This document shows, in pieces, positions 5,501 through 64,000 of a stretch of DNA of 64,000 nucleotides. Position 1 is the first letter of the stretch; each line of letters opens with the position of its first letter. Made by a program: the position numbers and the translations under genes. The stretch comes from a virus (taxonomy: Duplodnaviria > Caudoviricetes). Under the pieces are notes generated by a model. The model worked only from the letters and a program-made list of their open reading frames with translations, was not told the origin of the DNA and did not search any database. The DNA lies in the IMG/VR virus record IMGVR_UViG_3300010376_000002, positions 9,819-73,818 of that record, one strand, 5' to 3'.

Positions 5501-7644
5501 CTGCCGCACAAAGTCAGACTCGGCCGGCGGAAGTTCGGGACGCACTTGGAAGCTGGACCGACGGCGCCGAGAATTCGTTGCGAAGCGTTTACGACGATCA
5601 AGACGCGGAGACCAGGCGCATTGTTTCCTCTCTCAAAGGGTTGCATTCGGCTCAGAAAAACGTCCTCAATTTTCGATACGATCCCGAGGGACCGCACTTC
5701 ATGTATCACCTCGGATTCAAGTACGATAGCCCCGATAAGGTTGCTAAGTTGCTTGAAGAACACGGGTTAAGCTTCCGCACGCTTGAAGGAGGCAAAGGGC
5801 AACCGGTATGGGCGCACATCGTAGACAAGGATAAAAGTGCAGTAAATGGTATCGACAAGCTATTCGAGGGAGGGCATATTAATCAAGCCTATCGGCGCCT
5901 CGGGCATGCCGAGATGCTCGGAGATCCAAATGAAACATCAAGAGAAGACGCCGCGACAGCTTTCAGACGAACTCTGCAAGAAGCACGGGATAAAGACGCT
6001 CAACGACAAGGGCGGGGAGGATCACCTAGTGTACCGTGGTGGGAACCGTACTGGCGCGAAGCCGAAGAAAACTTCCAAAAGCTAAGAGCTTCTGACGAGT
6101 ACGAGAACCAGCAGGTCGCTCAAGACTATAAGCAGTCAGCCGCCGACCTAAACGATATCCCGCCTGAACAAAAGGCGAAGCTCGCCGAATATCAACACCG
6201 GGCAAAAGACTGGATAGCAAACGAAGGCAAGAAATGGGAGGAGGAAAACCCCCAATGGCATCGTCAAACGATGTACGCCTATCTGCTCGGCAAGAATAAC
6301 TTCCCGATCGATCCGGAAACCGGTCAACCGCGGATCAATATGACGAAGGCGGATATCGCCGCGCACGTCGAACGGATGCACAAAAAGCTCGATTTTTCTA
6401 AGCCGAGCCATCGGGAAAAAGCGGCCGAGATGATGCTCTACGACATGATGCATTCTCTCGCCGGCAGTTTCCGCGGCGATCCAAGTGCGGCTTATGGATG
6501 GTATGACCGTGCCGTCTCGAAGACCTTCGACAAAATGGAGGAAGTCGCGCCGAAAATTAAAACCGATCCGCTGCACAACTTGGCTTTCCGACTAGGACTA
6601 GCGATTACTAGCCAAGGCCAGAAGGTGCCCGAAAACGCGGAAAGTTCCTGGCATACCTACAACTACTGGCAGCAGCACCAGAACGACGCTAGACCTTTCC
6701 CAGAATCCAACGAGCACATTGGTGCCGGCGGAAAAGAGATCACCCAGATTGAAAACAATTTCCGCAAAGTGAACGACCTTTGGGAGAAGTACGGACCCGA
6801 GGCTGTTAACGATATTCTCACCTCAAAGATGTCGGTCAAAAAGCTCAAGGAGAAGTACGGCTTAGACGTCAGTGGCGAGGCAAAAGCTTACGAGGTCCGC
6901 GGTGCCATGGGGCTCGGACCCAAGATTGGCGCCTTCTTCTCAAACTTGAGCGGGATCTTCGATCCGGTAACGATGGACCGGTGGTTCGCTAGACAAATGA
7001 ATTTCTATGGTGGTGACATGTTTGGTTTCTCTGAAACGCCGATGAAAAAGGGCACCAAGGATTACGCACCGCACCTCGATGACTTGGAGAAACTCCTTGA
7101 GTCACCGGAAGCGATGAAGTCGGCCGGCCCGGAGGAGATCAAAAAAATGCGTGCCGAGATCGCAAAATTGCGCGCCGTGCCCGAGGGCAAGATGACTCGC
7201 AATAAAGCGAAGAAATTAGCTCCGGAAATCCACGCTTGGGCAAAACGAGCAACTGGAGTTTACGGTCGCAGTTACGCCGGCCAAGAAGACAAACCGCAAC
7301 GTTCTTTCCATCCTGACTTCGATACTCCGGAAAACGGACTCGCTAAACGGATGCACGAAAACGTCACCGATCTCGCTGATGCTCCGCGCAACTCTGGCGA
7401 GCGAGACGCTTTTCGCAATATTGTCGGTGAACGCGTTGAAGCGATGCTCAAAGCGCATGGCATTCATTTAACTAACGCCGACAAGCAAGCGGTTCCCTGG
7501 TTCGACATCAAGGACGTATTCAGGTTAGCAGGCTCAAATGCCTTGACTAACGTGAATTACCTTGACGCAGCTTACACGCTAGTGCGTCGTATTAAGCAGG
7601 GTTTAATCCCTAACTTGCTAGAACCTGAGGCAAAAGCAGCATGA
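2569..7644 (+). CDS. Large polyvalent (probably injected) protein with an ART-PolyVal-like ADP-ribosyltransferase domain and a C-terminal HhH/glycosylase-like domain
   Basis: About 4606-5200: YAFRGG..WFTP...A.IYA...LDIKNPFD...GYDGIYF...YAAFDPEQVK. About 6487-7510: GWY...LAITSQG...GPKIGAFFSNL...VTMDRWFAR...QAVPWF. About 4270-4530: THAAL...QGFHTNHGRFISRVEAWKVAKKAGQ small phage domain. Confidence 0.65.
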   Translation: MELKMPEELPASAQEVTGGYLPELWDAYLAEIEKANGLPAGTLRTLARQKDVPVQALNPLGVMSKEGPMSRFDSFKEAQSAIAQHAKSLSQTPVQAQVGGPPETAARAASPPPGAALLDPITREEMQDAHSKAQIAHADPEEAYHTAINDILTTHSQRLEPNDFRVARRINPDTGSDRLVGAYMVPGDPINEGMTRGLSPEDKAKLPWISQAILAGRALNFLYGSAEQEDPTKRATAEARRAEYSVSSAAQRIAGETEQQKSLITMIPEQLVATQPKWDKKEGRPIPSNTLMEGFGSDKALNNSEHIFNAAKQTGTKIAYQGRNDPNYLPAFVHYIQNQAHGYRGDGSGPDVDESGQPNQIWLKDQQRPGPQYVPHLLSRPQAEFIHASLNIVPGKKVGSESGAPSFAEHAKWLQRINRAYAGHDPGMNALLDELDRKMPQVPQRRKNRKTGEIEPTGKMLSWRKGVLEPTWRAHRVELMEHPEAGAQAMRETAAPEAAFQQAPHYRRTTAEFENPPSEGEVGSYARSPDPEIHHARHHDEWGWKHQSTPIEQDPLIGAPIGAGDEKITHAALQYPSGKRYLGINHAEAYWRADQAGEPGGDVAEQGFHTNHGRFISRVEAWKVAKKAGQVSKPTIKTVESVPIGSPWLDAEHFDPERFTKPSEGEVGSYETAEQPTAAAKPIYAFRGGGFNAEKMGSTPQFRGNGVAWFTPQHEPAQIYANRAADTAKELADEGVWERDPEAETPYVGHYQLDIKNPFDMSQPLTKEFLTKFNKEWDRDRKEKGFELLPKDRTKFILGQYKAGLPRLRERGLDDSIFNSRGVVTSGTDAIWRRILKRMGYDGIYFHGPDPIRHKEHSYEKHYAQYAAFDPEQVKDLPQNAEVGSPETRFTPGPAQPGLIGAEAAQQGASAPMPQPAEPQGGQMLSDFEPGEEGGGAGMEFASPSIREGMKLAGAKKALGSDVHASYKDYVTRLERDAAAQSQTRPAEVRDALGSWTDGAENSLRSVYDDQDAETRRIVSSLKGLHSAQKNVLNFRYDPEGPHFMYHLGFKYDSPDKVAKLLEEHGLSFRTLEGGKGQPVWAHIVDKDKSAVNGIDKLFEGGHINQAYRRLGHAEMLGDPNETSREDAATAFRRTLQEARDKDAQRQGRGGSPSVPWWEPYWREAEENFQKLRASDEYENQQVAQDYKQSAADLNDIPPEQKAKLAEYQHRAKDWIANEGKKWEEENPQWHRQTMYAYLLGKNNFPIDPETGQPRINMTKADIAAHVERMHKKLDFSKPSHREKAAEMMLYDMMHSLAGSFRGDPSAAYGWYDRAVSKTFDKMEEVAPKIKTDPLHNLAFRLGLAITSQGQKVPENAESSWHTYNYWQQHQNDARPFPESNEHIGAGGKEITQIENNFRKVNDLWEKYGPEAVNDILTSKMSVKKLKEKYGLDVSGEAKAYEVRGAMGLGPKIGAFFSNLSGIFDPVTMDRWFARQMNFYGGDMFGFSETPMKKGTKDYAPHLDDLEKLLESPEAMKSAGPEEIKKMRAEIAKLRAVPEGKMTRNKAKKLAPEIHAWAKRATGVYGRSYAGQEDKPQRSFHPDFDTPENGLAKRMHENVTDLADAPRNSGERDAFRNIVGERVEAMLKAHGIHLTNADKQAVPWFDIKDVFRLAGSNALTNVNYLDAAYTLVRRIKQGLIPNLLEPEAKAA

Positions 7645-49608: not shown

Positions 49609-51486
49609 ATGGCTTACCCTGCCAACGCTCGCATACCGGTGCAGGACCGTTACTGGATCCAGGGCGCCAACTCCCTCGTCTTTCCGACCGACCTTCCGCA
49701 AGGCCAATACTATTGGGCCGAGAACCTAGTCAACCGCGGAGGCGTGATGCAAACTCGCTCCGGCCGCAATCGCATCTTCAGCTTGCCGGGCACGCGCGCG
49801 CAAGGAATCACGATCTACCGTCCCTATCGCGAGAAAGAACAACTTGTGTGGTCGGTAGACGGTCAGATTTTTTGGTCCGAATATCCCTTCACGAAGTATT
49901 CGGCGATCACGAAAAGCCAAGTCGCCTTCTACAAACACGCACCGCGCGTTTATTTCTGTCAGGCGCGCCAAGGCGTAAAGCTCAATATCGATGGTTCGCT
50001 CACCCTTCTGCCGCAACCCCAGGATATATTGATGATGCAGGATGGTTTTACGGCTAGCGCTGCCTACATCGCTACCTCTAGCACGGCTCCGCTGCAAGCT
50101 GCCCACAACCAGCCCGCAGCACCCTGGCTCCAGTGTCCGACCGGCACGATCATGTTCTATAGCGGCAACCGACTCTGGGTCGCGTACCAAGAAACCATTT
50201 ACGCTAGCGACCTAGACAACCCGAACAGTTTCTCGGAACGCACCTATTTAGCCGAAGCCGATGGATTCAAACTGCCAGAGCCGTGTACGGGGATGCTCGA
50301 GATTGCCAGCGGTCCGACTGAGCTAGCTTCGCTCCTAGCCTTTAGCCCATTTACGATTACGAGCTTACTCTCGAACGTTTTGGATAGGACTCAGTGGCAG
50401 AATACTGCCAATTTCCAAACCATTATCTCGCGCGATTACGGCAACGTGGCGCCGTTTCTGGTTGCGAACCAATTCGGACTTCCGTGGTTCTGGAGTGAAG
50501 TCGGACTTCTGTCGCTCGACGTTGCCCTGAACCAATACGGATCTTCGGCCGTGAATCCTCGCGACATGGAGATGCTGCGTTCTAAGGACAACATCTCGGC
50601 TTTCGCGGCACCTAATATCTGCGGAGTCGCCTTCGAGAATTTCCTGCTTGTCAGTGTGCCGAGTGGGTCACGTTACAACCGCCAAACTTGGGTCATGGAC
50701 GGGGCACCGCAAGCGCAGCTCAACGGTGGTGCCGGCCGATGCTGGACCGGTATCTGGACCGGCGATTATCCGGTGCAATATGCGACCGGCGAGATCCAAG
50801 ATGTCCCTAGGTGCTTCCACATTGGATACTCCTGCCAACCCGAGCCGGATCCAGCCGGCAATATGTGTCAAATTCACATTTGGGAGGATTTTATCGGCCG
50901 GCGAACCGATCAAATCGACGGACAAGACACTCCGATTGAGTGCTCGTGGGAATCAAAAATTTTCGAGGTCAGTCAAGTTGGCGAGTTGATTCGCTTTAAG
51001 TATGTCGAGATCGATTGCGTCGAAATCTTGGGCACTGTCGCATTGCAGATCTTCTACGCCGGCATCAAAGGCCACTACCGGCTTTGTTATTCGATGATTC
51101 TTTCAGCTGATGAAGGCTTGCCTGGCTGCGATGAGTTTCCTCTCTGGACCTATCAAGGGCTGGCTACCGACACCGTTTTCGAAAGTTTCCGGCCGCAGGT
51201 CCGGACCGTCCGCACTCCAGATTTCTCTGGCTCGGCGGCCGAAGACGATGGATGCAGCGACACGTGCGGAATCGAATCGGACTATCAGCACAACGTCGAC
51301 CGCGGCTTTCAGATCTTGATCAACTGGCAGGGTAGAATGGGAATCAGGGAAATGCGCCTTTTTGTTGAAAATTACCCTCAACCTGGGGTTGGCAGGTGCA
51401 CTCCCACTGAGACAGGCGAAGTGAATATTGTCTCTGCTGTCGGTTGTCTGCCGCCTCCGAAAGTCTGCCAAATAGTGGTGCCGTAA
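49609..51486 (+). CDS. Probable tail nozzle/DNA stabilisation protein (P22 gp10-like)
   Basis: WAENLVNRGGVMQTRSG N-terminus, beta-propeller-like pattern, size and position before tail and ejection genes. Confidence 0.6.
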   Translation: MAYPANARIPVQDRYWIQGANSLVFPTDLPQGQYYWAENLVNRGGVMQTRSGRNRIFSLPGTRAQGITIYRPYREKEQLVWSVDGQIFWSEYPFTKYSAITKSQVAFYKHAPRVYFCQARQGVKLNIDGSLTLLPQPQDILMMQDGFTASAAYIATSSTAPLQAAHNQPAAPWLQCPTGTIMFYSGNRLWVAYQETIYASDLDNPNSFSERTYLAEADGFKLPEPCTGMLEIASGPTELASLLAFSPFTITSLLSNVLDRTQWQNTANFQTIISRDYGNVAPFLVANQFGLPWFWSEVGLLSLDVALNQYGSSAVNPRDMEMLRSKDNISAFAAPNICGVAFENFLLVSVPSGSRYNRQTWVMDGAPQAQLNGGAGRCWTGIWTGDYPVQYATGEIQDVPRCFHIGYSCQPEPDPAGNMCQIHIWEDFIGRRTDQIDGQDTPIECSWESKIFEVSQVGELIRFKYVEIDCVEILGTVALQIFYAGIKGHYRLCYSMILSADEGLPGCDEFPLWTYQGLATDTVFESFRPQVRTVRTPDFSGSAAEDDGCSDTCGIESDYQHNVDRGFQILINWQGRMGIREMRLFVENYPQPGVGRCTPTETGEVNIVSAVGCLPPPKVCQIVVP

Positions 51487-51492
51487 ACCGCC

Positions 51493-54400
51493 ATGAATCT
51501 CGTCCAGTTTTCAGCCACCAGTACCTTCGGTCAGGCTAATATCGCTGGCGATATGCTCGTGGCAATCATAGGTGCACAACCTGCGGTCACGGCAGTCCAT
51601 GATTCAGCCGGGAACACTTATACCCAGGCTTATCTCTATTCCGGCACTCCGGTAAGCGGATACGATATTAGTGTTTGGGTCTGCTATTCGTGTGTCGCTC
51701 ACGCGAGCGGCAACGTTGTCAGTCTAACCGGCGGCACCTCAAACCAGACTGTGGTTTATGAGGTCAAACCAGACTTCGCGGCTACCTTTGGCTCAGCGGT
51801 GGGAGTGCAAGCCAACAGCACGGTTAGTAATCCTTCCATCGGTCCTCTAGCCGTCCCAGCTAACAGCTTTGTGCTCCTGGGTGGCTTTCCCGGCTCGATT
51901 GCCGGGTTAGTTCCTTCGACGGGTTGGACTATCGAAGTGGGAGGCGCATTCGGCGACCAATCCGCCTGGATGATCTCAGTAGCAGGCGGCAGTACCAGTG
52001 TCCAGATAACCAGCGCCGGCCGCAATCCTAACGCCTTGGTCTTGGTCGCTCTTACCGAGACCTATGCTCCGACTCAAACTCCGCCCGCCCAAGGCACGAT
52101 TGTTCTTGGGTCTGGCTTTAAAGATCAACTGGGCGCGGCCCAACCAAACTTGAGTGACGCGAATGCTTGGACCCGTTGGGATAATCCCGATTCGACCGGC
52201 ATTGACTACGTCTACTGTGATGCTGGGGTTGCCGTTAATCCTACGAGCGTCAAATTCTCGGCGCGTGCAACTCGGGAAGCAGGAACAGTCGGCGCAAAAC
52301 TCCAAGCGAGTAACGATGCGACCTGGGCAACCGGAGTGGTTACTCTTTGGCAAGTCAGTGCTGCGCCTACCTGCGGGACGCTGCTCAACGGCTTTAGTAT
52401 GGCCGCTTACTCTGGTTACACTTGGCGGTATTACCGTTGGCTAGTGCCCAATGGTCAAACCACGGGATTAGCAGATCTGGAGTTCTACGGCTATTACGCT
52501 AGCGGTGTAAATGGGCAGTGCGCGCCCGTCGCGATTACTAATTTCAATGGAACGACGGGAGGCTTTTACGATGCGCCAGTCCGAGTGCGGATGAGTTGTC
52601 CGACTACCACGGCCACCATTCGCTACACCACTGACGGCACCAACCCGCAAAGTTCAGGCACGGCCCAGACGTATACTGGGCCAATTGTTATTAGTACTAA
52701 CACTACGATTCAAGCCTGCGCTACCCTTACGGGTTTGGCTGCTTCTCGGGTTACAGCTGCCAGTTATTACATCAACGTGATTAGTGTCGGACAGGGCGCA
52801 GCCGACATCCAGCATGAAGTGACTCGAGGCGGCTATCGGTGGTTCGCCATGGGTATTCAGCTGATGTTCAATCCTCCGGATGGACTCTGGTATGCGTACG
52901 GGCAGAACAACGACATGGTCGGTTTTAATACCGAGGGGAACGCCGGCGTTAATGTTTACTCCTCGCCTGATCTCCGAAACTGGTCCTTTGTCGCCAATGT
53001 GATGCGTCCAGCAGCGACTTGGACAGCACCAAACAATTTCCCTAACCGGACCGCAGTCCTTTACTGTGCGGCCAATGGTACTTACGTGGCGTGGCAGCAA
53101 ACGGCGTATACGCCATACACGATGTATGTCTGGACGGCGACCAGTCCCGGCGGCCCTTTCACCTTGAACGGTGGTGCGACTGGCTACGAAGGTTCCCGTC
53201 CCACTATTGATGGCTTTACGCCAGGCGGCGACATCAAGACTTGGTTGGATGGATCTACTGGAAAAGCCTACCTGATTTTCAATGCTGGCGGCTCGATGGA
53301 AATCTGCCAGTTAACTCCTGATTTCGTTAATTCGGCCGGATCGCCCAATTACGTGCAGTACGAAATCATGGGCGGTTCGAATCCAGGCGGACCAAATCCT
53401 TTCTCGAATACTCCCGAAGGGTACTCGATGTTCAAAATCGGCTCGACCTATTATTGGATGGCGTCGATGCCTCAAAGCGTATTGCCGGGCCTGAACCAAT
53501 GCGTCGAGGGTTCGAGTCCGCTCGGTCCTTGGAGTGCTCCTTATAATCCCCTGCAACCGGATAGCGGCTCAACCGGCTCGGGCGGAAACTCTGGGTACAG
53601 TCCGAACATTTACAGCCCGTCCAATCAATACGGCTTCGACGGTCAGAATGGAGGTCTTTGGGTTATCCCGGGCCGAACCAACGGCTACATATGGCTAGCG
53701 GAACGCTATGACGCTGCCTCGAGCACTTGGCCCAATGCCAGCGATACCACCGCCCATTACCATCTGCTCATTCTGCCAATCAAACTAGATGCGAGTAATC
53801 ATCTTAAAATTACTTGGCTTCCACAATGGTCATTTGACACCGAGATGCCCCAAGGGACAGGGCAACCGGCCGCTCCGAGCGCTCTAACTCTGGGCGGTAC
53901 TCCCACGAGCGTTTCACTTACTTGGGTCAATAACGCCACACAAGGTTATGCTCTTTACCTGGATCGTGCTGCGGACTCCGGCTTTAGCGTCAATCTCGTC
54001 AGCGAAGTCCTGAACGCAGGACAGACCAGTTTTACCGATACGATCCCTGGGACGACCTATTACTATCGAGTTAGAGCCGTCAATGCCAGCGGTTCGTCAA
54101 TCTCGAATGTCGTCTCAACCGTTCCGCCGGCCGCAGCAACTTATTATGTTAATGCAACTGCTGGGAATGATTCCGCCAACGGCCTTACGCCCGGTACAGC
54201 TTGGGCATCGCTAGCCAAGGTTAACGCCCACTCCTTCGTTCCCGGTGACACCATCCTTTTCAATGGTGGCCAGACTTTCGCGGGCGGACTCGCGCTAAGC
54301 ACCAGCGGCACTTCGGGTTTGCCCATAAGCTTTGGCAGCTACGGGACCGGCGTGGCTACGATTCAGAGTCCGGTCGGCACGATTGGATTTTATGCCCATA

Positions 54401-55968
54401 ACTGCGGCTACATTGCCCTAAGCAATCTGAATTTCACCGGGCCAGGGATAGCAACTGCTAACGAGCACGGAGTATATTTCCTCGTTGATCAAGCCGCGAC
54501 TATCTATAACTACATCCGTCTCGATCACGTCAATGTGACCGGCTACCAGAACGGCATCTTCCTAAACGGAAACTCGGCTTGGCATACCTCGCCGCAGAAC
54601 GGCTATAACGATGTCCGGATCACTAATTGCAACGTCTACGCGAATCAGCTCAACGGCATCATGTTCACCGATGGGAACGTGACCGGAGCTTATTCGAATG
54701 TCTACGTAGGATATTGCAACACGTACAATAACCCTGGCATTCCCAGCGGATCTCCCGGCGGTTGGTCAGGGACAGGGGTAAACTTTAACGTCGTCAATGG
54801 GGGCACCCTCGAATATTGCAGCCTTTACGGGAATGGCACCAATGGCGGCAACTTTGGTGTCATTTTGGGGGGCTGCAATAACGTCACGGTGCAATTCTGC
54901 GAGGCGTACAATAATACCAGCGTAACGGGCAACGATGGTGGTGGCTTCGACATCGACGGTGAATGCACCAACTGCACAATCCAGTACTGCTATTCCCATG
55001 GAAATTACGGGGCAGGCTTTGCCCTGTTTCAGTGGGATACCGCCAATCCCTTTAACAACAACGTCATTCGCTACAATATCAGCGAGAATGACGGATTCGG
55101 CTTAGGACTCTGGGGGGAAAACGCTTCCTTCCCCATCACTAATAGCTCGGTCTACAACAACGTCTTCTATAGTAATAAGGGACCAGGGGTAAATAACTTC
55201 GGGTATTCGGTTGGCATCACCGTCCAGAACAACATCTTCTTTGCAACCAATAACCAGCTCCTAAATCAGACCTCGGCATCCACTACCGGAGTCACGTACG
55301 ATCACAACGATTATTACGCCGCTCCCGGCACGCCCTGGAAAATCTCTTGGGGCGGCACTACCTACACGACGCTGGCATCGTGGGGACAGGATGCTCATGG
55401 ATTAACTTCCGATCCGTTATTGGTCAATCCGGGGAATGGCGGCACCATCGGCGATCCCACAAAATTATCCATGCTGAGTGCGTACTTGCTCCTGGCAGCA
55501 TCGCCCATGATTGATGCTGGGGTTGCGATCGCCAATCATGGGGCACGCGACTTTTACGGCAATCCGCTCAGCACTGGCTCGAATGACATTGGGGCAAATG
55601 AATTCACGGTGATTCCGATTGCGATTCCGCCAATAGCTGTGGTTCCGCCCGCGGCCCAAGTTTTGGCTCCTCCTGGGCGAGCTCGTATCTATCATCCTTT
55701 TAAACGCGTCTGGACACCGCGCACTCCCGACTCGAGTTACGACTCTTTCGCCGGCTTGACTCCGCCTTTCCCCATTGTCCAGCTTTCTCCAAACATATTG
55801 GGAGAAACTCAAACCGACCCGAAAACGGGCGCCCAAGTCCCGGTCTTCATTGGCCTCGGAGTCACGATCGCTAATGCCGTCTACTTAGCAAATATCGTTG
55901 TCACTCAACCTCTCGACCGGCTAGGAGTCGGCGTGACCATCCACTCGGGAACTTATACTCATCCATGA
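51493..55968 (+). CDS. Multidomain tailspike: discoidin-like, CHB_HEX_C/Fn3-like, GH43-like propeller, Fn3, right-handed beta-helix
   Basis: IRYTTDGTNP..YTGPI; GVNVYSSPDLRNW..SPGGPF..GKAYL..SPLGPW; TYYVNATAGNDSANG..AWASLAKVN..PGDTILF. Confidence 0.8.
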   Translation: MNLVQFSATSTFGQANIAGDMLVAIIGAQPAVTAVHDSAGNTYTQAYLYSGTPVSGYDISVWVCYSCVAHASGNVVSLTGGTSNQTVVYEVKPDFAATFGSAVGVQANSTVSNPSIGPLAVPANSFVLLGGFPGSIAGLVPSTGWTIEVGGAFGDQSAWMISVAGGSTSVQITSAGRNPNALVLVALTETYAPTQTPPAQGTIVLGSGFKDQLGAAQPNLSDANAWTRWDNPDSTGIDYVYCDAGVAVNPTSVKFSARATREAGTVGAKLQASNDATWATGVVTLWQVSAAPTCGTLLNGFSMAAYSGYTWRYYRWLVPNGQTTGLADLEFYGYYASGVNGQCAPVAITNFNGTTGGFYDAPVRVRMSCPTTTATIRYTTDGTNPQSSGTAQTYTGPIVISTNTTIQACATLTGLAASRVTAASYYINVISVGQGAADIQHEVTRGGYRWFAMGIQLMFNPPDGLWYAYGQNNDMVGFNTEGNAGVNVYSSPDLRNWSFVANVMRPAATWTAPNNFPNRTAVLYCAANGTYVAWQQTAYTPYTMYVWTATSPGGPFTLNGGATGYEGSRPTIDGFTPGGDIKTWLDGSTGKAYLIFNAGGSMEICQLTPDFVNSAGSPNYVQYEIMGGSNPGGPNPFSNTPEGYSMFKIGSTYYWMASMPQSVLPGLNQCVEGSSPLGPWSAPYNPLQPDSGSTGSGGNSGYSPNIYSPSNQYGFDGQNGGLWVIPGRTNGYIWLAERYDAASSTWPNASDTTAHYHLLILPIKLDASNHLKITWLPQWSFDTEMPQGTGQPAAPSALTLGGTPTSVSLTWVNNATQGYALYLDRAADSGFSVNLVSEVLNAGQTSFTDTIPGTTYYYRVRAVNASGSSISNVVSTVPPAAATYYVNATAGNDSANGLTPGTAWASLAKVNAHSFVPGDTILFNGGQTFAGGLALSTSGTSGLPISFGSYGTGVATIQSPVGTIGFYAHNCGYIALSNLNFTGPGIATANEHGVYFLVDQAATIYNYIRLDHVNVTGYQNGIFLNGNSAWHTSPQNGYNDVRITNCNVYANQLNGIMFTDGNVTGAYSNVYVGYCNTYNNPGIPSGSPGGWSGTGVNFNVVNGGTLEYCSLYGNGTNGGNFGVILGGCNNVTVQFCEAYNNTSVTGNDGGGFDIDGECTNCTIQYCYSHGNYGAGFALFQWDTANPFNNNVIRYNISENDGFGLGLWGENASFPITNSSVYNNVFYSNKGPGVNNFGYSVGITVQNNIFFATNNQLLNQTSASTTGVTYDHNDYYAAPGTPWKISWGGTTYTTLASWGQDAHGLTSDPLLVNPGNGGTIGDPTKLSMLSAYLLLAASPMIDAGVAIANHGARDFYGNPLSTGSNDIGANEFTVIPIAIPPIAVVPPAAQVLAPPGRARIYHPFKRVWTPRTPDSSYDSFAGLTPPFPIVQLSPNILGETQTDPKTGAQVPVFIGLGVTIANAVYLANIVVTQPLDRLGVGVTIHSGTYTHP

Positions 55969-57428
55969 ATACCTTCGGTTTAGGCGGACGCGTCCAAGTC
56001 GCGGTGCTCGACGCTGCGACCGGCCGAGTCATGCGCAAATTGCCGTGGCAAACAAATCTCATCCTCGACCAGGGGATGGATATGATCGCCTCAATGCTCT
56101 TTAATCAAACCTTTACCAACTGCGCGGCCGGGACCGGCAGTGCGGCGACGGACCAAAGTTCCGGCACTACTACCGCGACGGTTAGCGGAACTACCATCAC
56201 CGCAAGCACGGCGTTCTTCACTACCACAATGATCAATGCCGACGTGCTCTTTCCAGGCAACGTCCGCTTTAAAATTCTCTCTCTCGGTGGCGCTTCGCCC
56301 TCCGCCACGGCCACTCTCAAAACCGCCGGAACGATTGCAAGCGCCACCGCTTTCACTGTCCAGTATGTCACTCAAGCCACGCTCTCGACCGAGGTGAAAC
56401 GCTCCGGTATTTACTCCGCTGCGCCGGGCGCTAACGAAGCTATCGTGGCGCCTGGCTCGGTCACTTTGCAGCGCACCTTTGCCTTCACGCCGGAGACGAC
56501 CAATATCACCTATACCGAGATTGGCCTTTCGCCGAACTCGAGCGCAGGACCGAATCTCTTTAGCCGGATTCTCTTAGCTACGCCGGTCAGTCTCCAGGGA
56601 CCGAGTGCGCTTCTGCCCAGTGGGCAAGCACTGCAAGTGACCTACCAATTGACGGTGAGCTTCGATTACGGCTCGGGCGCCGGCAATTTCTTCAGTGGAG
56701 TCAACACCGGCACAATTGCCGTTACCAATTTGCCGGTCGTATTTCCGATCACCAAATACGCGAATTCGGCGACGATTCCGGGGCAACTCGCCGTCACTGT
56801 GACCGGCAACATGCCGGCGGTTGTCGGTCAAAACGTTACCTTGGCCGGTTCCTCCCTCTACAACGGCAATTGGCAAGTGCTCGATGTGTCCTCGATCACT
56901 GATCCGACGCACGGTGCGTCGACGGTGGTGAGCTTATCGGTTTCCTACTCGAGTGCGCCCGCAATCACCTCCGATAACCTCACTACTCCGCTCACTGGCG
57001 GCTTTTTCCGCAGCTGCCAAGGCATCTATCTCATCGGTCCAACCGGGCAAAGTACGCCGCCGACTCCGACTGCGGATGCTTTTCTCGGTTTCGGCGAACC
57101 GGGCATTAGCGTGATGGGATGGGAACCGCAAGCTTGGGCGGCGCCGGCCGGTCCGTCATTGCTCGGCGGCAACGGTGCTCCCGTCTCAATCGATCCATCC
57201 AAAATCTACACGGTTACCTGTCTGCCGAACGCCTACACCAACGGCAATTTCTTTTTAGATCAGGTGGCCAACATCACGATTGGTACTCCTCCGGCTATCA
57301 GCTCTTTTGGCTTCGGACTTCCGGATCAAACCAATCAAATCGAAACCTATTTCTGGAACGGTCCGCAAGGGCTGGTCGTCAACTCCACGCTCTCGATCAC
57401 CTTCCGTTCCAGTTGGGCGCGTAACTAG
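55965..57428 (+). CDS. Tail structural protein
   Basis: NLILDQG...AAGTGS...L..EVKR...RTFAF...EIGL...LFSRILL. Confidence 0.6.
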   Translation: MNTFGLGGRVQVAVLDAATGRVMRKLPWQTNLILDQGMDMIASMLFNQTFTNCAAGTGSAATDQSSGTTTATVSGTTITASTAFFTTTMINADVLFPGNVRFKILSLGGASPSATATLKTAGTIASATAFTVQYVTQATLSTEVKRSGIYSAAPGANEAIVAPGSVTLQRTFAFTPETTNITYTEIGLSPNSSAGPNLFSRILLATPVSLQGPSALLPSGQALQVTYQLTVSFDYGSGAGNFFSGVNTGTIAVTNLPVVFPITKYANSATIPGQLAVTVTGNMPAVVGQNVTLAGSSLYNGNWQVLDVSSITDPTHGASTVVSLSVSYSSAPAITSDNLTTPLTGGFFRSCQGIYLIGPTGQSTPPTPTADAFLGFGEPGISVMGWEPQAWAAPAGPSLLGGNGAPVSIDPSKIYTVTCLPNAYTNGNFFLDQVANITIGTPPAISSFGFGLPDQTNQIETYFWNGPQGLVVNSTLSITFRSSWARN

Positions 57429-57430
57429 CC

Positions 57431-58165
57431 ATGGCTGTTCCTATTCCAGTCAGTTTCCAGTTAAATAAATCGCCGGCCGAAAAACCGCTCGGCGTTCAAG
57501 AGCTGCTCAACCTGATTGGCGATTCATTAGTCGCTTCCTTCGATCGAAGTAATTATATTTTGGGACAGCTCGGAGGGATTCTCCCTAACCAAAATTACGG
57601 TCCTTGGGCTAACGGCCGGGAATGGTGGTTCTGGAGCGACAACCAAGGTGCCTATGTCCGCGGCACGGACGGCGTGCCGGTTGGCACCATTATCATCTGG
57701 GGCGGACAAGGCTCACCTCCTAACTGGCTAACCTGCGACGGAAGCGAACAATCCCGCACCACCTACAACCAACTCTTTCAGGTCATTGGTACGACTTGGG
57801 GCGCCGGTGACGGGCAAGATACTTTTAATCTTCCGCCAGGCGCCGGAGTCTTTTATGCGGCCGCTCATTATCCGCCTAATGGCTCGATGTGGGATCGCGG
57901 CGTCCAAGGTGGAACCCAAATCGCTCCGCTGTTAGTCACTCCTAACATTCCGCCTTTGCAATGCAAGGTTGGTTTTACTGCCACCACTAAACAACAACCT
58001 GGTCCCTACGGCTTGCCAATCCTCGAACCTTCCTATCAAAATGTTGAAAATTACATCTATGAAGTCCTGACTCCGGACGGCACTCCGCTCAAGTTTCAGG
58101 AACAGACCCAGTTCTCGATCATGCCGCCATTCGCCAGCGCTAACTACGTTATCAAATACCAATAA
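57431..58165 (+). CDS. Tail collar domain protein 1
   Basis: PVGTIIIWGG..PPNWLTCDGSEQSRTTYNQLFQVIGTTWGAGDG..TFNLP. Confidence 0.9.
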   Translation: MAVPIPVSFQLNKSPAEKPLGVQELLNLIGDSLVASFDRSNYILGQLGGILPNQNYGPWANGREWWFWSDNQGAYVRGTDGVPVGTIIIWGGQGSPPNWLTCDGSEQSRTTYNQLFQVIGTTWGAGDGQDTFNLPPGAGVFYAAAHYPPNGSMWDRGVQGGTQIAPLLVTPNIPPLQCKVGFTATTKQQPGPYGLPILEPSYQNVENYIYEVLTPDGTPLKFQEQTQFSIMPPFASANYVIKYQ

Positions 58166-58918
58166 ATGGCTGTTCCGGTTCCCATCACTCTCACGCTCAA
58201 GCCTCCACCGCTCGGTTGGGTCGCCCAAAGTCCCAACAAGTATGCGGAACTGGTCCAGCTCGTCGCGGCTAACCTGAGTGGTTCGATGGACGTTGAGCTG
58301 CTTACGGGAAAAGTCGGAGGCTCACAACCTTCTAGCGATCTCGGTCCCTGGCTTAATAACCAAAAATGGTACGTATACGGCTCGCACGGTTATCAACCGA
58401 GCCAGCAAGGCGCACCCATTGGAACGGTCGCTATCTGGAGCAGCTATTACGGCGCCACTCCCTATCCTGATGGCTGGCTTTTCTGCTCCGGCCAAAGCGT
58501 TTCGACGACAACTTTTAGCGCGCTTTTCAATGCGATTGGCTATTTGTGGGGCGGAAGCGGAGCAAACTTCAATCTGCCTCCTGGCGGCGTCTTCTATTTC
58601 AATTGCTCGGGCGCGCTTATGGATCCGCTCGCTTTCCCTCCCAACGGAGGATTCCTTCATGCCGGCCAAGAAGGAGGCGCACTTTCTCAAAAGCTGAGCG
58701 GCACCAATATGCCGAGACTCAAAATTACGATCCCTTACCTGTACCCGAATATCATAGACGGCAGCGGCACTAGCCTTGGGGATATCAGCGGACCTACTCC
58801 TCTTGCCTACGATTATCCGGTGCAAGCCGAGTTCGGACCTCCGGTCGGTTCGAATCAACAACCCGTCGCGACTGTGCCCCCTTACGTCGCGATCTTCTAC
58901 ATCATCAAATATCAGTAA
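58166..58918 (+). CDS. Tail collar domain protein 2
   Basis: PIGTVAIW..PDGWLFCSGQSVS.TTFSALFNAIG..WG...FNLP. Confidence 0.9.
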   Translation: MAVPVPITLTLKPPPLGWVAQSPNKYAELVQLVAANLSGSMDVELLTGKVGGSQPSSDLGPWLNNQKWYVYGSHGYQPSQQGAPIGTVAIWSSYYGATPYPDGWLFCSGQSVSTTTFSALFNAIGYLWGGSGANFNLPPGGVFYFNCSGALMDPLAFPPNGGFLHAGQEGGALSQKLSGTNMPRLKITIPYLYPNIIDGSGTSLGDISGPTPLAYDYPVQAEFGPPVGSNQQPVATVPPYVAIFYIIKYQ

Positions 58919-59721
58919 TGGCTGTCCCTCTTCCAGTTGGTCTTTCAGTCGGAGCTGTTCCCATCGGCTGGGAAGGCAACCTGCCGGACCTTTTCAATTT
59001 GATTCAAGCTTCGTTCCAAGCCGAGCTGGATCCGACCTTTCTCATTGGAAAGGTCGGAGGCAACATGCCAAAGCACGATATCGGCCCGTGGTTCGACGGA
59101 AAAGGTTGGTGGTTCTTCGATCCGCTCGCTGGCCAATACACTCCTGATCAACAGGGAATGCCGATCGGTTCCATCGCGATGTGGGGCGGTTACGGAAACC
59201 AGATTCCGGCTAATTGGCTTTCCTGCTACGGACAAGAGGTTTCTCGTTTCACCTATTCATTTCTGTTCAATGCGATCGGTGAGACTTGGGGTCCAGGCGA
59301 CGGAGCGAGCACCTTTAACTTGCCGCCGGGCGGAGTCTTTTTTGTCAACGCCGCTGGCTTTTCCGCTCAAGCACAAGTGCCCTTGAACATGTTGCCAGCG
59401 GCACCGGGACAAACGCCGGTGCAATCCTCTCCAGAAGGAGTTGCCGCAATCGGCGGTTCGCAGACAACCGGCCTGCTCCCAAGCGACATGCCTGGCATGC
59501 AAGTCATTCTCAAATTAGTGACCCAGAATTACGCGAACGGCTCACCAACTACCCCAGGCACTCCCATCGCCAACATCCAGAAAGCACAAGCCGGTTTTTC
59601 GACCGGCCAAGCCGATATGCCGATTGTCGATATGTCGAATAACCCCACTGGATCAAATCAGAAAAACTTCTCGGTCATGCCCCCCTATGTCGGCATCAAC
59701 TTCATGATCAAATTTCAGTGA
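58918..59721 (+). CDS. Tail collar domain protein 3
   Basis: PIGSIAMW..PANWLSCYGQEVSR.TYS.LFNAIGETWG.GDG.STFNLP. Confidence 0.9.
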   Translation: MAVPLPVGLSVGAVPIGWEGNLPDLFNLIQASFQAELDPTFLIGKVGGNMPKHDIGPWFDGKGWWFFDPLAGQYTPDQQGMPIGSIAMWGGYGNQIPANWLSCYGQEVSRFTYSFLFNAIGETWGPGDGASTFNLPPGGVFFVNAAGFSAQAQVPLNMLPAAPGQTPVQSSPEGVAAIGGSQTTGLLPSDMPGMQVILKLVTQNYANGSPTTPGTPIANIQKAQAGFSTGQADMPIVDMSNNPTGSNQKNFSVMPPYVGINFMIKFQ

Positions 59722-60104
59722 GAAGCGCGCACCACATCCGCCAGATCCGCATCGATTCAGCCGAAGCGCTCGATGTCGCCTTGATCAGAGAATTTGCCGA
59801 GGATTGTGGCATCGAGATTTTACCGCGCTTTCCGCTCTGGATCGTCTTCGTAGACGGGCAACCCGCGGCGTTCTATTACGCCGCTCAGCAGGTTTGCATC
59901 TATCCCACGGTGCATCCGACTCGGATGAGTCCGCGCGCGTTCTACGAGGCGGCCTGCGCAATCGCGTCCGCGACCCAAGACAAGTACGGCAATCCCGTCT
60001 GGCTTATCGATGAGCACTCCAAACTCAACGTGCCGGCGATCTTGAAAAAAGTTGGACTCTTGGCGAAAGCGCTCGCAGTATACGAACCGGAACGAGGTCG
60101 CTAA
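59718..60104 (+). CDS. Small protein, possibly GNAT-fold, preceding ejection genes
   Basis: Position typical of podovirus pre-ejection genes; GTGA/TAATG coupling. Confidence 0.5.
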   Translation: MRSAHHIRQIRIDSAEALDVALIREFAEDCGIEILPRFPLWIVFVDGQPAAFYYAAQQVCIYPTVHPTRMSPRAFYEAACAIASATQDKYGNPVWLIDEHSKLNVPAILKKVGLLAKALAVYEPERGR

Positions 60105-60736
60105 TGCCTACTACGGCGCCAACGATGCCCCATTATCAGCAGCCGGGTCCGATGCCGGCATTCGTGGGCGCAAATCCGCAAAATATCGAGCAAGGCGCGG
60201 TCTCGATGGATCAACAGGCTTACGGATTGAGCGATACCGACTTCAAACAGCGCTACCCACAGTTGTGGCAAAGTCAGCAGACGTTTCTCGACAACCTAAA
60301 AAACCAGATAAGCGGGAACATCAACCCGCAGATGCAGAATGTCTGGGCGAGATCTGGCCTAGCGGGCGCTTTGGGTTCAACCGGCGGCTGGAGTCTAGGG
60401 ACAGGGACGACGGGAATGGCGAACATTGCGAGAAATTTGGGGCTCAATCAGATGGGCTACCAACAGCAGGTCTTGAATCAATTCCAGACGGCGAACGACA
60501 CCTTCCGGCCGCGGACGTTCGGACTCTCCGGCGCCGATGCTGCGCAGATAGCACTTGCTAACATAGCGGGCCAAAACAATTTCAACCAGGCAAACTATGC
60601 TTATAAAGTACAAGCTAGCCAATACGAGACCGGACTTGCCGCGCAGCAAAGTGTTATGAGCGCTAATGCCAGTAATGCCCAAACCTCGAATATCATCGGC
60701 GGAATCGCCGCGGCCGCGGTTGTTGCCTTGGCTTGA
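60104..60736 (+). CDS. Probable DNA ejection (internal virion) protein
   Basis: Gln/Asn/Gly/Ala-rich; hydrophobic GGIAAAAVVALA end, P22 gp7-like in composition. Confidence 0.55.
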   Translation: MPTTAPTMPHYQQPGPMPAFVGANPQNIEQGAVSMDQQAYGLSDTDFKQRYPQLWQSQQTFLDNLKNQISGNINPQMQNVWARSGLAGALGSTGGWSLGTGTTGMANIARNLGLNQMGYQQQVLNQFQTANDTFRPRTFGLSGADAAQIALANIAGQNNFNQANYAYKVQASQYETGLAAQQSVMSANASNAQTSNIIGGIAAAAVVALA

Positions 60737-60757
60737 AGAGCATGCCAGGAAAAGAGT

Positions 60758-61996
60758 GTGGACACTCAAGCCTACTATGTTAACTACGATCGATCTTGCC
60801 TCCGTGCTGAGCGTGCTCGCCACTTGTGGCGTCTGCCTTATTCCACTTTGCTCGAGTTCGGGATCTCCAGCTACCGGGACATCACCGAACTCGATACCAT
60901 CGGCATCCCGGTTTGGGTCGCGTACCGACCACCGAGCACCTCGATCAGCGTAACGTGCGGCAAATCGATTGATCCGCTTCTGGCTTTTGCGGGCGCAATT
61001 ACCGAAGCACTCGAGTTTTGGGCGGCTGAAAACCCCAAGGATAGTCCCTGCACTCTGTGTGCTTATTCGCGTCTAAAGGAGAAAACAGAAGCCGAGCATT
61101 TAGCACTCGAAGACTATCCCTTGGCCCGTGATAACATCATCGACGAGCAAACACCGATTGCTTGGGAGCTAGTCACTAAGCTTGGCGCCGGCGCCAAAAC
61201 CGTTTGGATGCCCTCTAACGTGATTTGGTTAGTTGATCGCGCCCAAGCTCAGTTTCAAGACGTGCAGCAAAGCTCAAATGGCTTAGCGGCAGGTTGCACT
61301 CTGGAAGATGCACTTCTGCAAGCTATCTATGAGCTAGTCGAGCGTGACGGTTGGACGATCAACGAACATATTCGCGAGGTGACCGGCCGATTTCCGCGCA
61401 AGATCAACCTCGCTAACCTCCCTTCGGAACTCGCCGATCTGGTCGCTAAGATGCGGGCCGCCGGCTGTCATCCGTTTTTGTTCGACTGCAAAAGCAATTT
61501 GGAAATCCCGGTCATCGGCTGCGCTCTCTTTGACGACGACAACGTCGGCACCTTCGGTGGCTATGGTTGTCACCTTTCTCCTCGTGTCGCGGCTGGGCGG
61601 GCGCTAACCGAGGCTGCGCAATCGCGGCTTTGCTACATTTCCGGAGCTCGGGACGATTTGTATCGACGCGATTTTCTTCTAATGAAGCGTAGCTCAAGTA
61701 AGTGGATTGTCTCGCAACTCGAAGCCCTGAAACCGACTTACAGAACTTGGGCCGAATATCCGGCCAAGTATGAAAGCTTCAACTCCGTTCGCGACGAACT
61801 GATGGAACTAGTGAAAATTCTCACGAACCAGCGAATCGACCTCTACTACAAAACACTGCACACTTTGGAACTCGGAGGCGAATCCGTCGTGGTTGTCAAA
61901 GCAATCGCCCCAAAACTCGAAGGCGTTTGGTGCGGCTCTTGGCAAACTACCGGACGGGCTACTTCACACTTAGCAAATGAACTTGGAACAACCTAA
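60758..61996 (+). CDS. ycaO: YcaO-family ATP-dependent amide-activating enzyme, TfuA-associated type
   Basis: ITELDTIGIPVW, GKS..AITEALE, SSNGLAAG.TLEDALLQAIYELVERDG, GGYGCH..VAAGRALTEAAQSRL.YISGARDDL. Confidence 0.93.
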   Translation: MDTQAYYVNYDRSCLRAERARHLWRLPYSTLLEFGISSYRDITELDTIGIPVWVAYRPPSTSISVTCGKSIDPLLAFAGAITEALEFWAAENPKDSPCTLCAYSRLKEKTEAEHLALEDYPLARDNIIDEQTPIAWELVTKLGAGAKTVWMPSNVIWLVDRAQAQFQDVQQSSNGLAAGCTLEDALLQAIYELVERDGWTINEHIREVTGRFPRKINLANLPSELADLVAKMRAAGCHPFLFDCKSNLEIPVIGCALFDDDNVGTFGGYGCHLSPRVAAGRALTEAAQSRLCYISGARDDLYRRDFLLMKRSSSKWIVSQLEALKPTYRTWAEYPAKYESFNSVRDELMELVKILTNQRIDLYYKTLHTLELGGESVVVVKAIAPKLEGVWCGSWQTTGRATSHLANELGTT

Positions 61997-62234
61997 AAGT
62001 TATACTTGCCCGAAGTGCGGAATGGTCAGCTATAATCCGTATGACATCCGCGACAAATATTGTGGCAACTGTCATCTCTTCGAAGGCGAGAGGAGACTTT
62101 TCTTTAAAGCTGCGGATGGGCGACTGTTTGAGTGTCCGATTGACATCGGACTTCCCAAGACAATGGACGAATTCCAACGACAATTGCTCGAACTAGCCCA
62201 TCGAATGGAAGAGGAACGTGGACGACCAACCTGA
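61977..62234 (+). CDS. Small Zn-ribbon protein between ycaO and tfuA
   Basis: TCPKCG...YCGNCH. Confidence 0.65.
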   Translation: MNLEQPKSYTCPKCGMVSYNPYDIRDKYCGNCHLFEGERRLFFKAADGRLFECPIDIGLPKTMDEFQRQLLELAHRMEEERGRPT

Positions 62235-63567
62235 GAAAGTCCTCATCTACGCCGGGCCGAGTCTCGACTACGGCACGATTGCCGAACAGCTTCCCGATTG
62301 CGAAGTCATCGTCAAAGGCCCGGTGCGCCACGGTGACTTCTCAACCGACTTGCTCGAGTGCGAACCTTCGCACGTCCTAATCATCGAAGGACTCTTTCAT
62401 CAAAACCTCAGTGTCTGGCACAAGGAGATTGTGTGGGCACTGCAAATGCCAGGCATCAAAGGCATCTACGGTGCGGCCTCGATGGGCGCATTGCGCGCGG
62501 CCGATTTGGCGCCGTATGGGATGATTGGCTGCGGCCGCATCTTCCGTTGGTTCTACGAAGGGATCACTTTCAAAGAAGCGGACGTCGCGTCTGCTTACGG
62601 TTTACGTACCGATGCCAATGTCATCTCGAGTGCTCTCACTGTTCCGATGGTCAACGTTTACGGTGCACTTCTCAAAGCGCTCGAAGACGGAGTAATCGAC
62701 GAAGGGACCGCAGAATATTTTGTCAGGCAAGAACGCGCAGTCCACTGGACGCAACGCACGCTTCGGCATATGGACCCGAACCTTGCGAAACTGATCGAGC
62801 AGCACGACCAGAAAAAGATCGACGCTCTCGAACTCTTATGCACCTTTCGCAAACTCGAGCCGGAGCCCGGTGCTACGAAGCTCGGCATCGAGGCTCTCTC
62901 GGGTTTGTTTACCGCCCAGTTTGAGCGCGATCGCTCGGTCAACGTCGGCGGCCGCCCGGTCAAGCTTCAGGATTTGGATGCGTTCGTGATGCTTCACGAT
63001 CAGGAGTACGACCAGCACTCGGCAAATGCCGATTACCGGATCCTGGCGCTAATGCTTGCCGACATCTACCGCATTACTCTTTCCTACACCGAACTCGATA
63101 CCGAGTGGCAACGCTTTAACGTCCGAATGAATCTGCGTTCGCTCGAAGAGCACAACCAATGGCTCAAGGACAACCATGTTAACGCCCGCGAATTGGTGCG
63201 AATTTTGTCAGACGAGGTACGGCTTCGGAAGTTGCGCCGGGCGCTTATGGTGCGTTCTGGGCCAAGGCGACATACCCAGAGACTCCTTGACTATCTCAAG
63301 CTTAACCGGAACTACACCTATTGGGCTAACGCCGCGGCCGCGCACGAAGAACTCATCGCCCAGAAAGGCGGAGAAGAATCACTCGAGCTCGGCGGTGAAA
63401 CCAACGTAGCAATCCTACTGAATCAGCACGCGCGTAAAGCTGGATTGACGATCCCTACTAGTCTGGGAGAATATGTCCGCGAGGCAGGCTTTGGAACGGT
63501 GCGCGAACTGATGGTCGCGTTATCGCGCGACAAGCTTGGCGACAATGCCGAACTTCCTCGACAATAG
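62218..63567 (+). CDS. tfuA: TfuA-like protein with a ~200-aa helical C-terminal extension
   Basis: YAGPSL, PVRHGD, VWHKEI..AL, YGAASMGALRAADL..YGMIGCGRIF, VPMVNV. Confidence 0.93.
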   Translation: MDDQPEKVLIYAGPSLDYGTIAEQLPDCEVIVKGPVRHGDFSTDLLECEPSHVLIIEGLFHQNLSVWHKEIVWALQMPGIKGIYGAASMGALRAADLAPYGMIGCGRIFRWFYEGITFKEADVASAYGLRTDANVISSALTVPMVNVYGALLKALEDGVIDEGTAEYFVRQERAVHWTQRTLRHMDPNLAKLIEQHDQKKIDALELLCTFRKLEPEPGATKLGIEALSGLFTAQFERDRSVNVGGRPVKLQDLDAFVMLHDQEYDQHSANADYRILALMLADIYRITLSYTELDTEWQRFNVRMNLRSLEEHNQWLKDNHVNARELVRILSDEVRLRKLRRALMVRSGPRRHTQRLLDYLKLNRNYTYWANAAAAHEELIAQKGGEESLELGGETNVAILLNQHARKAGLTIPTSLGEYVREAGFGTVRELMVALSRDKLGDNAELPRQ

Positions 63568-64000
63568 TCTAGCAGCACTCAACCGCGGCTATCAGCTAAT
63601 GTACGGTAGCGACGGGCGGCTCTATCAGGTGCCCGTCTCGAACCAAACCTACTTCGGAGGTCAACAAGCACCGGCAACGCCGACGCCAAGTCCGACTCCC
63701 GCTCCGCAACCGACGCCAACGCCATCGCCAACTCCGGTTCCTCCGCAACGCACTCCAACTTACGTTGGCGGCATTCCGTTAACCTACGCCGCACCGGTCG
63801 CTCAGAATCCAGAGGTCGGACAGTGGGACACCAACATGGGTGCCGTGGATCCGGCCGCACCGGTCAGTCCCGAGAACACGCTGGCTAGCGTCAACTTGTT
63901 GTCACCGGTTAAACCGGCAATGGCAACGAGTGTGAATCTGCCGGCCTTCACTCCGCTTCAGCAATCCGGACAGGATGGACAAGGTGGACAAGGTGGACAA
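63545..64000 (+). CDS. Untracked ORF truncated by the window end; Pro/Thr-rich with GQG repeats, probable virion/ejection protein
   Basis: ATG at 63545 gives MPNFLDNSLAALNRGYQLMYG...PATPTPSPTPAPQPTPTPSPTP...GQGGQGGQ, open to 64000. Confidence 0.75.
   Translation, partial: MPNFLDNSLAALNRGYQLMYGSDGRLYQVPVSNQTYFGGQQAPATPTPSPTPAPQPTPTPSPTPVPPQRTPTYVGGIPLTYAAPVAQNPEVGQWDTNMGAVDPAAPVSPENTLASVNLLSPVKPAMATSVNLPAFTPLQQSGQDGQGGQGGQ

Follow-up and report, generated by a model that had tools for sequence, protein, structure and literature searches.

To our knowledge, backbone thioamides rank among the rarest of protein modifications, being known only on McrA, on the ribosomal protein uL16 and in a few classes of RiPPs (peptides made on the ribosome and modified after translation). 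YcaO enzymes use ATP to activate a backbone amide, and several reactions can proceed from the one activated intermediate. A thioamidating YcaO acts on McrA, giving the thioglycine of methyl-coenzyme M reductase (PMC5589413), and the E. coli-type YcaO, which belongs to a TfuA-independent subfamily of 586 aa, thioamidates uL16 by recognising its tertiary structure (PMC13063428). According to the summary given in PMC13063428, TfuA hydrolyses a ThiS-type thiocarboxylate, thereby delivering a sulfide equivalent. An adjacent YcaO-TfuA pair also serves as the thioamide module of thioamitide-type RiPP clusters (thioviridamide-type, thiovarsolin; PMC6511847, PMC8120280). Here we analyse a YcaO-TfuA pair carried by an uncultured soil phage and located on a window (the whole stretch of DNA analysed) of 64,000 nt, i.e., bases 9819-73818 of the 73,818-bp IMG/VR virus record IMGVR_UViG_3300010376_000002. 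No description of such a pair in a phage was found in the full-text literature, in keeping with the original prediction, made from the letters of this window, which knew of no characterised case. While the enzymes are of a known kind, their setting and implied use are new.

We propose that the two genes form a two-enzyme backbone-thioamidation cassette whose likeliest target is a virion or internal protein of the phage expressed together with them, a reading to which we assign a probability of about 0.5. YcaO would use ATP and activate the oxygen of a backbone amide, and the sulfide equivalent would come from a long-form TfuA that hydrolyses a thiocarboxylated ThiS/MoaD-type carrier provided by the host. 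The pair would be translationally coupled and transcribed in a late run with the tail and internal-protein genes. Its target could be the conserved N-terminal domain of X or the protein Y, encoded immediately upstream and downstream of the pair (Table 1), or another virion or internal protein made simultaneously, and the C-terminal extension of TfuA would dock this substrate or a partner. We infer the target above all, but also the thioamide chemistry in the phage and the reliance on a carrier of the host. Because the pair lies among late tail and internal-protein genes, a phage protein made at the same time is the most likely target.

The YcaO protein matches the PF02624 profile over positions 2-325 of 325 (E = 9.4e-55; 186.6 bits, cut-off 25.7) and TIGR00702 (E = 1.6e-44; 152.5 bits, cut-off 75.65), and is thus a member of the YcaO superfamily. 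Its best solved relative is MJ1094 (6PE3/6PEU; E = 1.6e-24). Thirteen divergent phage copies (30-58% identical) all share residues E83, E86, N174, G175, E192, E195, R196, D197, R281, E285 and Q288, the signature glutamates included, and the invariant acidic and arginine residues lie where the protein aligns with MJ1094 and with E. coli YcaO (query 173-290 versus chain 180-295). E192, E195 and R196 align to positions 199, 202 and 203 of E. coli YcaO, reportedly ligands of ATP and Mg2+ in its structure. Comparison with locus L121, the closest relative (78% identical), gave proportions of nonsynonymous and synonymous differences (pN and pS) of 0.15 and 0.71, respectively, and a ratio of nonsynonymous to synonymous substitution rates (dN/dS) of about 0.08, dS being saturated. 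As far as its sequence can tell, this YcaO is intact and its active-site signature is preserved. It is related to the McrA-thioamidation equivalog TIGR03266 without being a member (142 bits, cut-off 365), and scores 38 bits against NF040716, the profile of the uL16-type YcaO (cut-off 700).

The TfuA protein matches PF07812 over profile positions 2-119 of 119 with its residues 58-181 (E = 1e-28; 99.9 bits, cut-off 30). Residues 7-200 match NF033432 (E = 1e-33), the score of 116.6 bits lying below the equivalog cut-off of 235.2, so that here too the phage protein is a non-member. Its best solved relative is the TfuA of M. acetivorans (6XP8; sequence E = 5.5e-16), which was also matched by the predicted model (predicted local distance difference test, pLDDT, 76.8) in a Foldseek comparison (E = 4.2e-11; TM-score of 0.72 by target). 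The dN/dS ratio of TfuA relative to locus L122, about 0.08, equals that of YcaO. A profile built on the C-terminal extension alone matched 416 representative clusters, nearly all of them TfuAs of 440-480 aa with the match at approximately 205-450; the named carriers are Azospirillum (473 aa) and Micromonospora profundi (470 aa). The phage TfuA aligns with these two proteins over its full length, extension included (approximately 446 aa, of which about 30% are identical; E = 7e-41 and 5e-35, respectively, with the extension profile), whereas the short TfuAs of methanogens and Acidimicrobiia (215-253 aa), encoded next to the nearest cellular YcaOs, lack the extension. A PDB fold search with the whole model returned no match for the extension, and a weak SurA-N-like similarity in the ESM Atlas (TM about 0.4) is a lead only. 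The extension is our candidate for the likeliest substrate- or partner-docking module. Its architecture places the phage pair in the long-TfuA branch of RiPP type, although the McrA-type enzymes are still its best relatives among solved structures and profiles. This long-TfuA link between the phage pair and bacterial RiPP-type clusters is new here.

In 16 of 20 loci, the end of YcaO runs directly into TfuA with 8-94 nt in common, as translational coupling would have it, and the gene run of this phage is interrupted by no convincing promoter or terminator. The original prediction described the pair as co-oriented and overlapping via a small Zn-ribbon gene. The coordinates and overlaps were recovered as described (Table 1), but the Zn-ribbon open reading frame (ORF) does not link the two genes in the lineage and appears as a lineage-specific insertion: homologues are absent from all fetched loci and from 5.8 billion proteins, and it is missing in L121, whose YcaO and TfuA overlap. 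Being an ORFan private to this phage, at a junction where direct overlap prevails, it was rejected as a component of the system. The junction looks like an insertion hotspot. Other inserts are an HNH endonuclease gene (PF13392; L008:3163-3636), 398 nt in L014:8169-8568 and 124 nt in L003.

The methanogen McrA system resembles the phage locus in its adjacent genes, YcaO then TfuA, in the length of its YcaO (about 400 aa), and in providing the best solved-structure relatives of both proteins. Its substrate is a large protein that is not encoded beside the enzymes. Unlike the phage protein with its 245-aa extension, the methanogen TfuA is short (215-217 aa); moreover, the phage pair scores below the equivalog cut-offs and is not accompanied by McrA. 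The uL16 YcaO of E. coli sets a precedent for a folded target protein encoded elsewhere, and the phage YcaO differs from it by its pairing with TfuA and by its length (412 versus 586 aa). In Azospirillum, the locus comprises YcaO, the 473-aa TfuA, a carrier ending in GG and a ThiF-rhodanese protein, whereas the phage encodes neither carrier nor ThiF. The Azospirillum carrier is a 92-aa protein (L117:11419-11697) ending in ALAGG, the C-terminus of a ThiS/MoaD-type carrier, and is followed by a ThiF-rhodanese fusion; this locus is a self-contained thioamidation operon. In Micromonospora profundi, the pair lies inside a cluster of lanthipeptide type that also encodes LanB, a LanC-like protein, a halogenase and ABC exporters, together with a precursor of 63 aa rich in Cys, Ser and Thr, a set that the phage does not have. 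In both bacteria, YcaO is located directly upstream of TfuA and overlaps it as in the phages, yet YcaO identity is only 28-32%, and the phage embeds its pair among virion genes, unlike these clusters. Finally, thioamitide-type clusters are defined by a short precursor and further tailoring enzymes, none of which is recognisable in the phage.

The missing companions concern the complete genome and not merely the window. Family searches gave no match there to ThiS (PF02597), ThiF (PF00899), ABC transporter (PF00005), C39 peptidase (PF03412) or PqqD-type RiPP recognition element (PF05402), which extends to the whole genome the earlier remark that no RiPP precursor, protease, transporter or ThiS/ThiF is visible. 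In none of the loci examined does a conserved small ORF lie beside the two genes; this phage has a single small ORF there, the private ORFan. A cyclodehydratase partner (E1-like, Ocin-ThiF-like) was not detected, and a dehydrogenase was not searched for. With neither carrier nor ThiF encoded by the phage, the sulfur carrier would have to come from the host. The precursor expected of a thioamidated RiPP cluster was not found, X or Y as an unconventional precursor being conceivable.

With clustering at 90% identity, the phage YcaO has more than 100 relatives, the most distant about 35% identical to it; every one comes from a metagenome, and many are located on contigs of 60-80 kb. The gene order in relatives is a protein of about 620 aa, a conserved structural marker of 625 aa, fibres, a 128-aa protein (p128), X, YcaO, long TfuA, Y and Z. 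A distant subclade adds a giant protein of 2,100-2,800 aa downstream of the pair. The same order was found in about 20 viral contigs. YcaO then TfuA directly follow X in 18 of the 19 IMG/VR loci that have X and enough downstream DNA, and further metagenome contigs are organised likewise. The 625-aa marker was used to retrieve 80 loci of the wider lineage. Among these marker-sampled loci, at least 15 with at least 8 kb of downstream DNA lack X, YcaO and TfuA, and two others, L064 (on the same contig as L020) and L093, have X without the enzymes, L020 also encoding Y-like proteins.

Over 105 locus pairs, which are mutually non-independent, YcaO and TfuA diverge in step with the 625-aa marker (Spearman correlation of identities 0.77 and 0.68, respectively; mean identity 0.47 versus 0.50). 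In a maximum-likelihood tree of 45 YcaOs, a single branch (support 99/98) splits all the phage copies from the six cellular ones, a topology that, with few cellular rows and long branches, is compatible with one ancient acquisition. Among the 50,697 phage records of GenBank, no TfuA was found, and the only YcaO match was the host ycaO on an E. coli prophage-derived record. A scan of GTDB genomes with two conserved YcaO peptide patterns detected no copy in a prophage, and the cellular YcaOs that it found were at most 36% identical, a pattern-limited result that constitutes weak evidence of absence. We conclude that the pair is a long-standing core gene pair, under purifying selection, of a deep lineage of uncultured 60-80-kb phages. 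The identity of the host is hinted at neither by tRNAs, none of which was found, nor by a prophage match. One copy of the module (L007) lies at 14699-35931 of a 315,443-bp ENA contig, in a phage-like local context. A prophage, a phage of very large size and an assembly of concatenated pieces are all conceivable origins of this contig, which might reveal a host.

Table 1. Coordinates of the YcaO-TfuA pair and of neighbouring features in the window.
Feature	Position	Strand	Basis or remark
Conserved structural marker, 625 aa, probable tail hub/nozzle-like protein	49609..51486	+	first of the co-oriented late genes
Tail fibre (487 aa) and three paralogous tail-collar proteins (244, 250 and 267 aa)	55965..59721	+	PF07484, PHROG
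p128, 128 aa, weakly GNAT-like fold (GCN5-related N-acetyltransferase)	59718..60104	+	precedes X in YcaO-bearing phages
X, Q/N/G-rich, tail-less form of 210 aa	60104..60736	+	directly upstream of YcaO
YcaO, 412 aa, predicted ATP-dependent backbone-amide-activating enzyme	60758..61996	+	PF02624, TIGR00702, invariant signature residues
Zn-ribbon ORFan, 85 aa, CxxC...CxxC	61977..62234	+	20-nt overlap with YcaO, 17-nt overlap with TfuA
TfuA, 449 aa (long form)	62218..63567	+	PF07812, NF033432
TfuA, predicted catalytic N-terminal domain, residues 1 to ~204	62218..62829	+	PF07812, NF033432, 6XP8 fold match
TfuA, helical C-terminal extension (residues 205-449) that marks the long-TfuA subfamily	62830..63567	+	conserved in all phage copies
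Y, Pro/Gly/Ala/Gln-rich, low-complexity, ~610 aa	63545..64000, continuing across the circular junction (L002:26-1396)	+	likely start ATG 63545

X is the best-conserved neighbour of the pair, being 69-87% identical to its counterparts in close relatives and homologous across the clade, and it often overlaps YcaO in relatives. In those relatives, X carries an additional C-terminal tail of about 78 aa made of a hydrophobic stretch and the motifs CW[LV]AR and RWKxFRxWM (compare L005:7143-8000 and L122:7854-8756), which could be a membrane anchor. The X described here ends exactly before this tail, which is not encoded anywhere else in the genome; L121 is likewise tail-less, and the next relative, L122, retains the tail. 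Otherwise the tail is conserved across the whole clade, YcaO-less phages included. Since the tail is missing both here and in L121, its loss must be old, the enzymes having remained under selection afterwards; it follows that the tail is not an obligatory substrate or docking element, and it was rejected as an obligatory substrate or leader. The sequence R-Y51-P52 of X is invariant in 18 YcaO-bearing phages and replaced by R-H-A in two YcaO-less ones, a weak comparative lead. A complex prediction for YcaO and X, run without controls and with the fold of X itself uncertain, scored 0.00; it gives no verdict and is evidence neither way. X is split over two overlapping frames in L007:8414-10004 and L009:8366-10004 and is a single ORF in L008 and L010; the split may reflect a frameshift, either programmed or due to a sequencing error. 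No relation was found between X and a 174-aa neighbour protein of the Azospirillum locus.

Downstream of the pair, Y overlaps the stop codon of TfuA and shares the N-terminus MPNFL.NS...RGYQ.MYG with close relatives, its length and sequence being highly variable in the clade (218-787 aa). PHROGs has no family for YcaO, TfuA, X, p128 or Y, and Pfam has none for X, Y, Z, the 209-, 519- and 621-aa proteins or the giant proteins of the distant subclade. By their position after the tail-hub-like and fibre genes, their low-complexity composition and weak ESM Atlas leads, X, Y and Z may be internal or ejection proteins. The original prediction had placed an intact pair in a virion/ejection operon, between a probable ejection-protein gene and a Pro/Thr-rich virion-like gene. 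The pair itself, its intactness, its co-orientation and its position amid tail and low-complexity genes all stand, and the ejection identity is a suggestion for which no family match was obtained.

Several observations weigh against a phage virion or internal protein as the target. No substrate was identified in this analysis. X (in L020/L064 and L093) and Y-like proteins (in L020) occur in phages devoid of the enzymes and can therefore function unmodified, and the X tail, the most RiPP-like candidate core, was lost here and in L121 while the enzymes were kept. The cellular relatives of the long TfuA sit in RiPP-type clusters, which could equally mean that the substrate is a small unrecognised peptide. 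In addition, X and Y are putative ejection or internal proteins by their position and composition, no family having matched them, and a host carrier is assumed. For the more specific proposal that phages of this lineage thioamidate their own virion or internal (ejected) protein with a host ThiS/MoaD-type thiocarboxylate as sulfur donor, our confidence is tentative.

The pair could be made late, or be packaged and injected, and thioamidate a host protein, e.g., a ribosomal protein, a polymerase or a defence protein, thereby aiding infection. YcaOs are known to thioamidate folded proteins encoded far away, as McrA (PMC5589413) and uL16 (PMC13063428) illustrate, no phage substrate was pinned down, and the occurrence of X and Y-like proteins without the enzymes in related phages leaves room for a target outside the phage; by position, moreover, the pair belongs to a gene run where podoviruses place injected proteins. 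A late virion module would nevertheless be a poor location for taking over the host unless the enzymes were packaged, of which there is no sign, and the uL16-type YcaOs are TfuA-free and belong to a different, longer subfamily, as the score of 38 bits against a cut-off of 700 indicates. We thus regard a host target as unlikely. A secreted RiPP is also less likely than a phage-protein target. A small thioamidated peptide could originate from an unrecognised short ORF or from processed X or Y, and be released at lysis or remain intracellular. It would fit the sharing of long TfuAs with the RiPP-type clusters of Micromonospora and Azospirillum, as well as the position of X, which occupies the place of a precursor gene directly upstream of YcaO and often overlaps it. 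The complete genome, however, has no exporter, C39 peptidase or PqqD-type recognition element, no conserved small ORF travels with the pair in the loci examined, and the X tail is dispensable, making a phage RiPP decidedly improbable.

The chemistry itself could differ, the YcaO forming an amidine or an azoline, acting by plain ATP-dependent activation, or playing a structural or chaperone role, with no thioamide made. YcaO reactions are diverse, and both proteins score under the McrA equivalog cut-offs (142 versus 365 and 116.6 versus 235.2 bits). On the other hand, the YcaO strictly co-occurs and is translationally coupled with TfuA, a thioamide-specific partner whose N-terminal domain is conserved and matches 6XP8, and, with the limits of the search given above, no cyclodehydratase partner was detected; such alternatives therefore appear very improbable. 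Even less credence can be given to an artefact in which a YcaO-TfuA block of host DNA was misassembled onto a phage contig, a chimera that the original prediction had named among its refuting alternatives. The record is rated 100% complete and its 25-bp terminal overlap indicates a closed circular assembly, GC content is even across the window (0.50-0.57), and other parts of it gave a match to RecT and a weak one to the large terminase. The stretch is present in three soil-metagenome runs from three studies. In one of them, the independent run X3 (not the likely source run), identical contigs, with 0 differences, bridge all three junctions: X with YcaO (60387-60877), YcaO with the small ORF and the start of TfuA (61683-62225), and TfuA with Y (63423-63853). 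The same gene order recurs in about 20 independent viral contigs at 30-78% protein identity, and the closest cellular YcaOs found are merely 28-36% identical. Because of this conserved synteny and of the junctions bridged in an independent run, a chimera with host DNA is ruled out; nothing was found in favour of an artefact.

A core pair under purifying selection, placed inside the virion gene run and accompanied by neither a sulfur relay nor a precursor, implies that viruses put thioamide chemistry to a use not yet recognised, which might consist in stabilising or protease-proofing a virion or ejected protein, or in altering a host target. If the phage protein reading is true, viral structural proteins would gain their first example of a backbone O-to-S modification, and a thioamidation system would, for the first time, have been recruited as a core virion-maturation function. 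The phage also offers a compact natural test bed for the role of the C-terminal domain of long TfuAs and for the route by which sulfur reaches YcaO, and, its proteome comprising fewer than 100 candidate substrates, the substrate question becomes directly tractable. Besides the long-TfuA link, it is new here that a complete genome lacks RiPP and sulfur-relay companions, that X has naturally lost its tail, that sister phages without YcaO exist, that the Zn-ribbon ORF is demoted and that contigs from independent reads confirm the junctions.

Other genes of the run were characterised to a lesser extent. p128 was recognised by its profile in every YcaO-bearing locus (E = 1e-24 to 1e-59) and, far more weakly, in some YcaO-less relatives (E = 1e-4 to 1e-8), and gave no profile match in two loci with X but without YcaO. 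Its model is compact (pLDDT 85.6), with faint resemblance to GNATs (Foldseek E = 0.03-0.2; VIA Z at most 5.3). Given such weak fold echoes and the lack of a Pfam match in 12 of 12 members, p128 was not assigned as a GNAT enzyme, nor is it related to the GNAT encoded upstream of the Azospirillum YcaO (hhalign probability 0.1%). Since weak p128-like proteins also occur in YcaO-less relatives, p128 is not counted as a component of the system. The 625-aa marker is 65-68% identical in close relatives and 34-39% in distant ones. Its ESM Atlas neighbours all belong to Uroviricota, and in some of their clusters a share of the members has a tail-hub or distal-tail domain (17% for PF11134, 64% for PF21430), a lead only. 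The tail-collar proteins match PF07484 (E = 3.6e-13), the tail fibre (PHROG 4176) and tail collar families of PHROG are represented, and these genes are syntenic in relatives.

Two large genes set this phage apart or recall its distant relatives. A tail-spike-like gene encoding 1,491 aa (51493-55968) is private to this phage, the close relatives having at this place ORFs of 81-145 aa that resemble about 100 of its residues, and looks like a swapped host-recognition module. At the other end of the window, a 1,691-aa protein (2569-7644) shows a weak, below cut-off match to ART-PolyVal (E = 7e-4), and is possibly polyvalent and injected, an analogue of the giant proteins of 2,100-2,800 aa found in the distant subclade.

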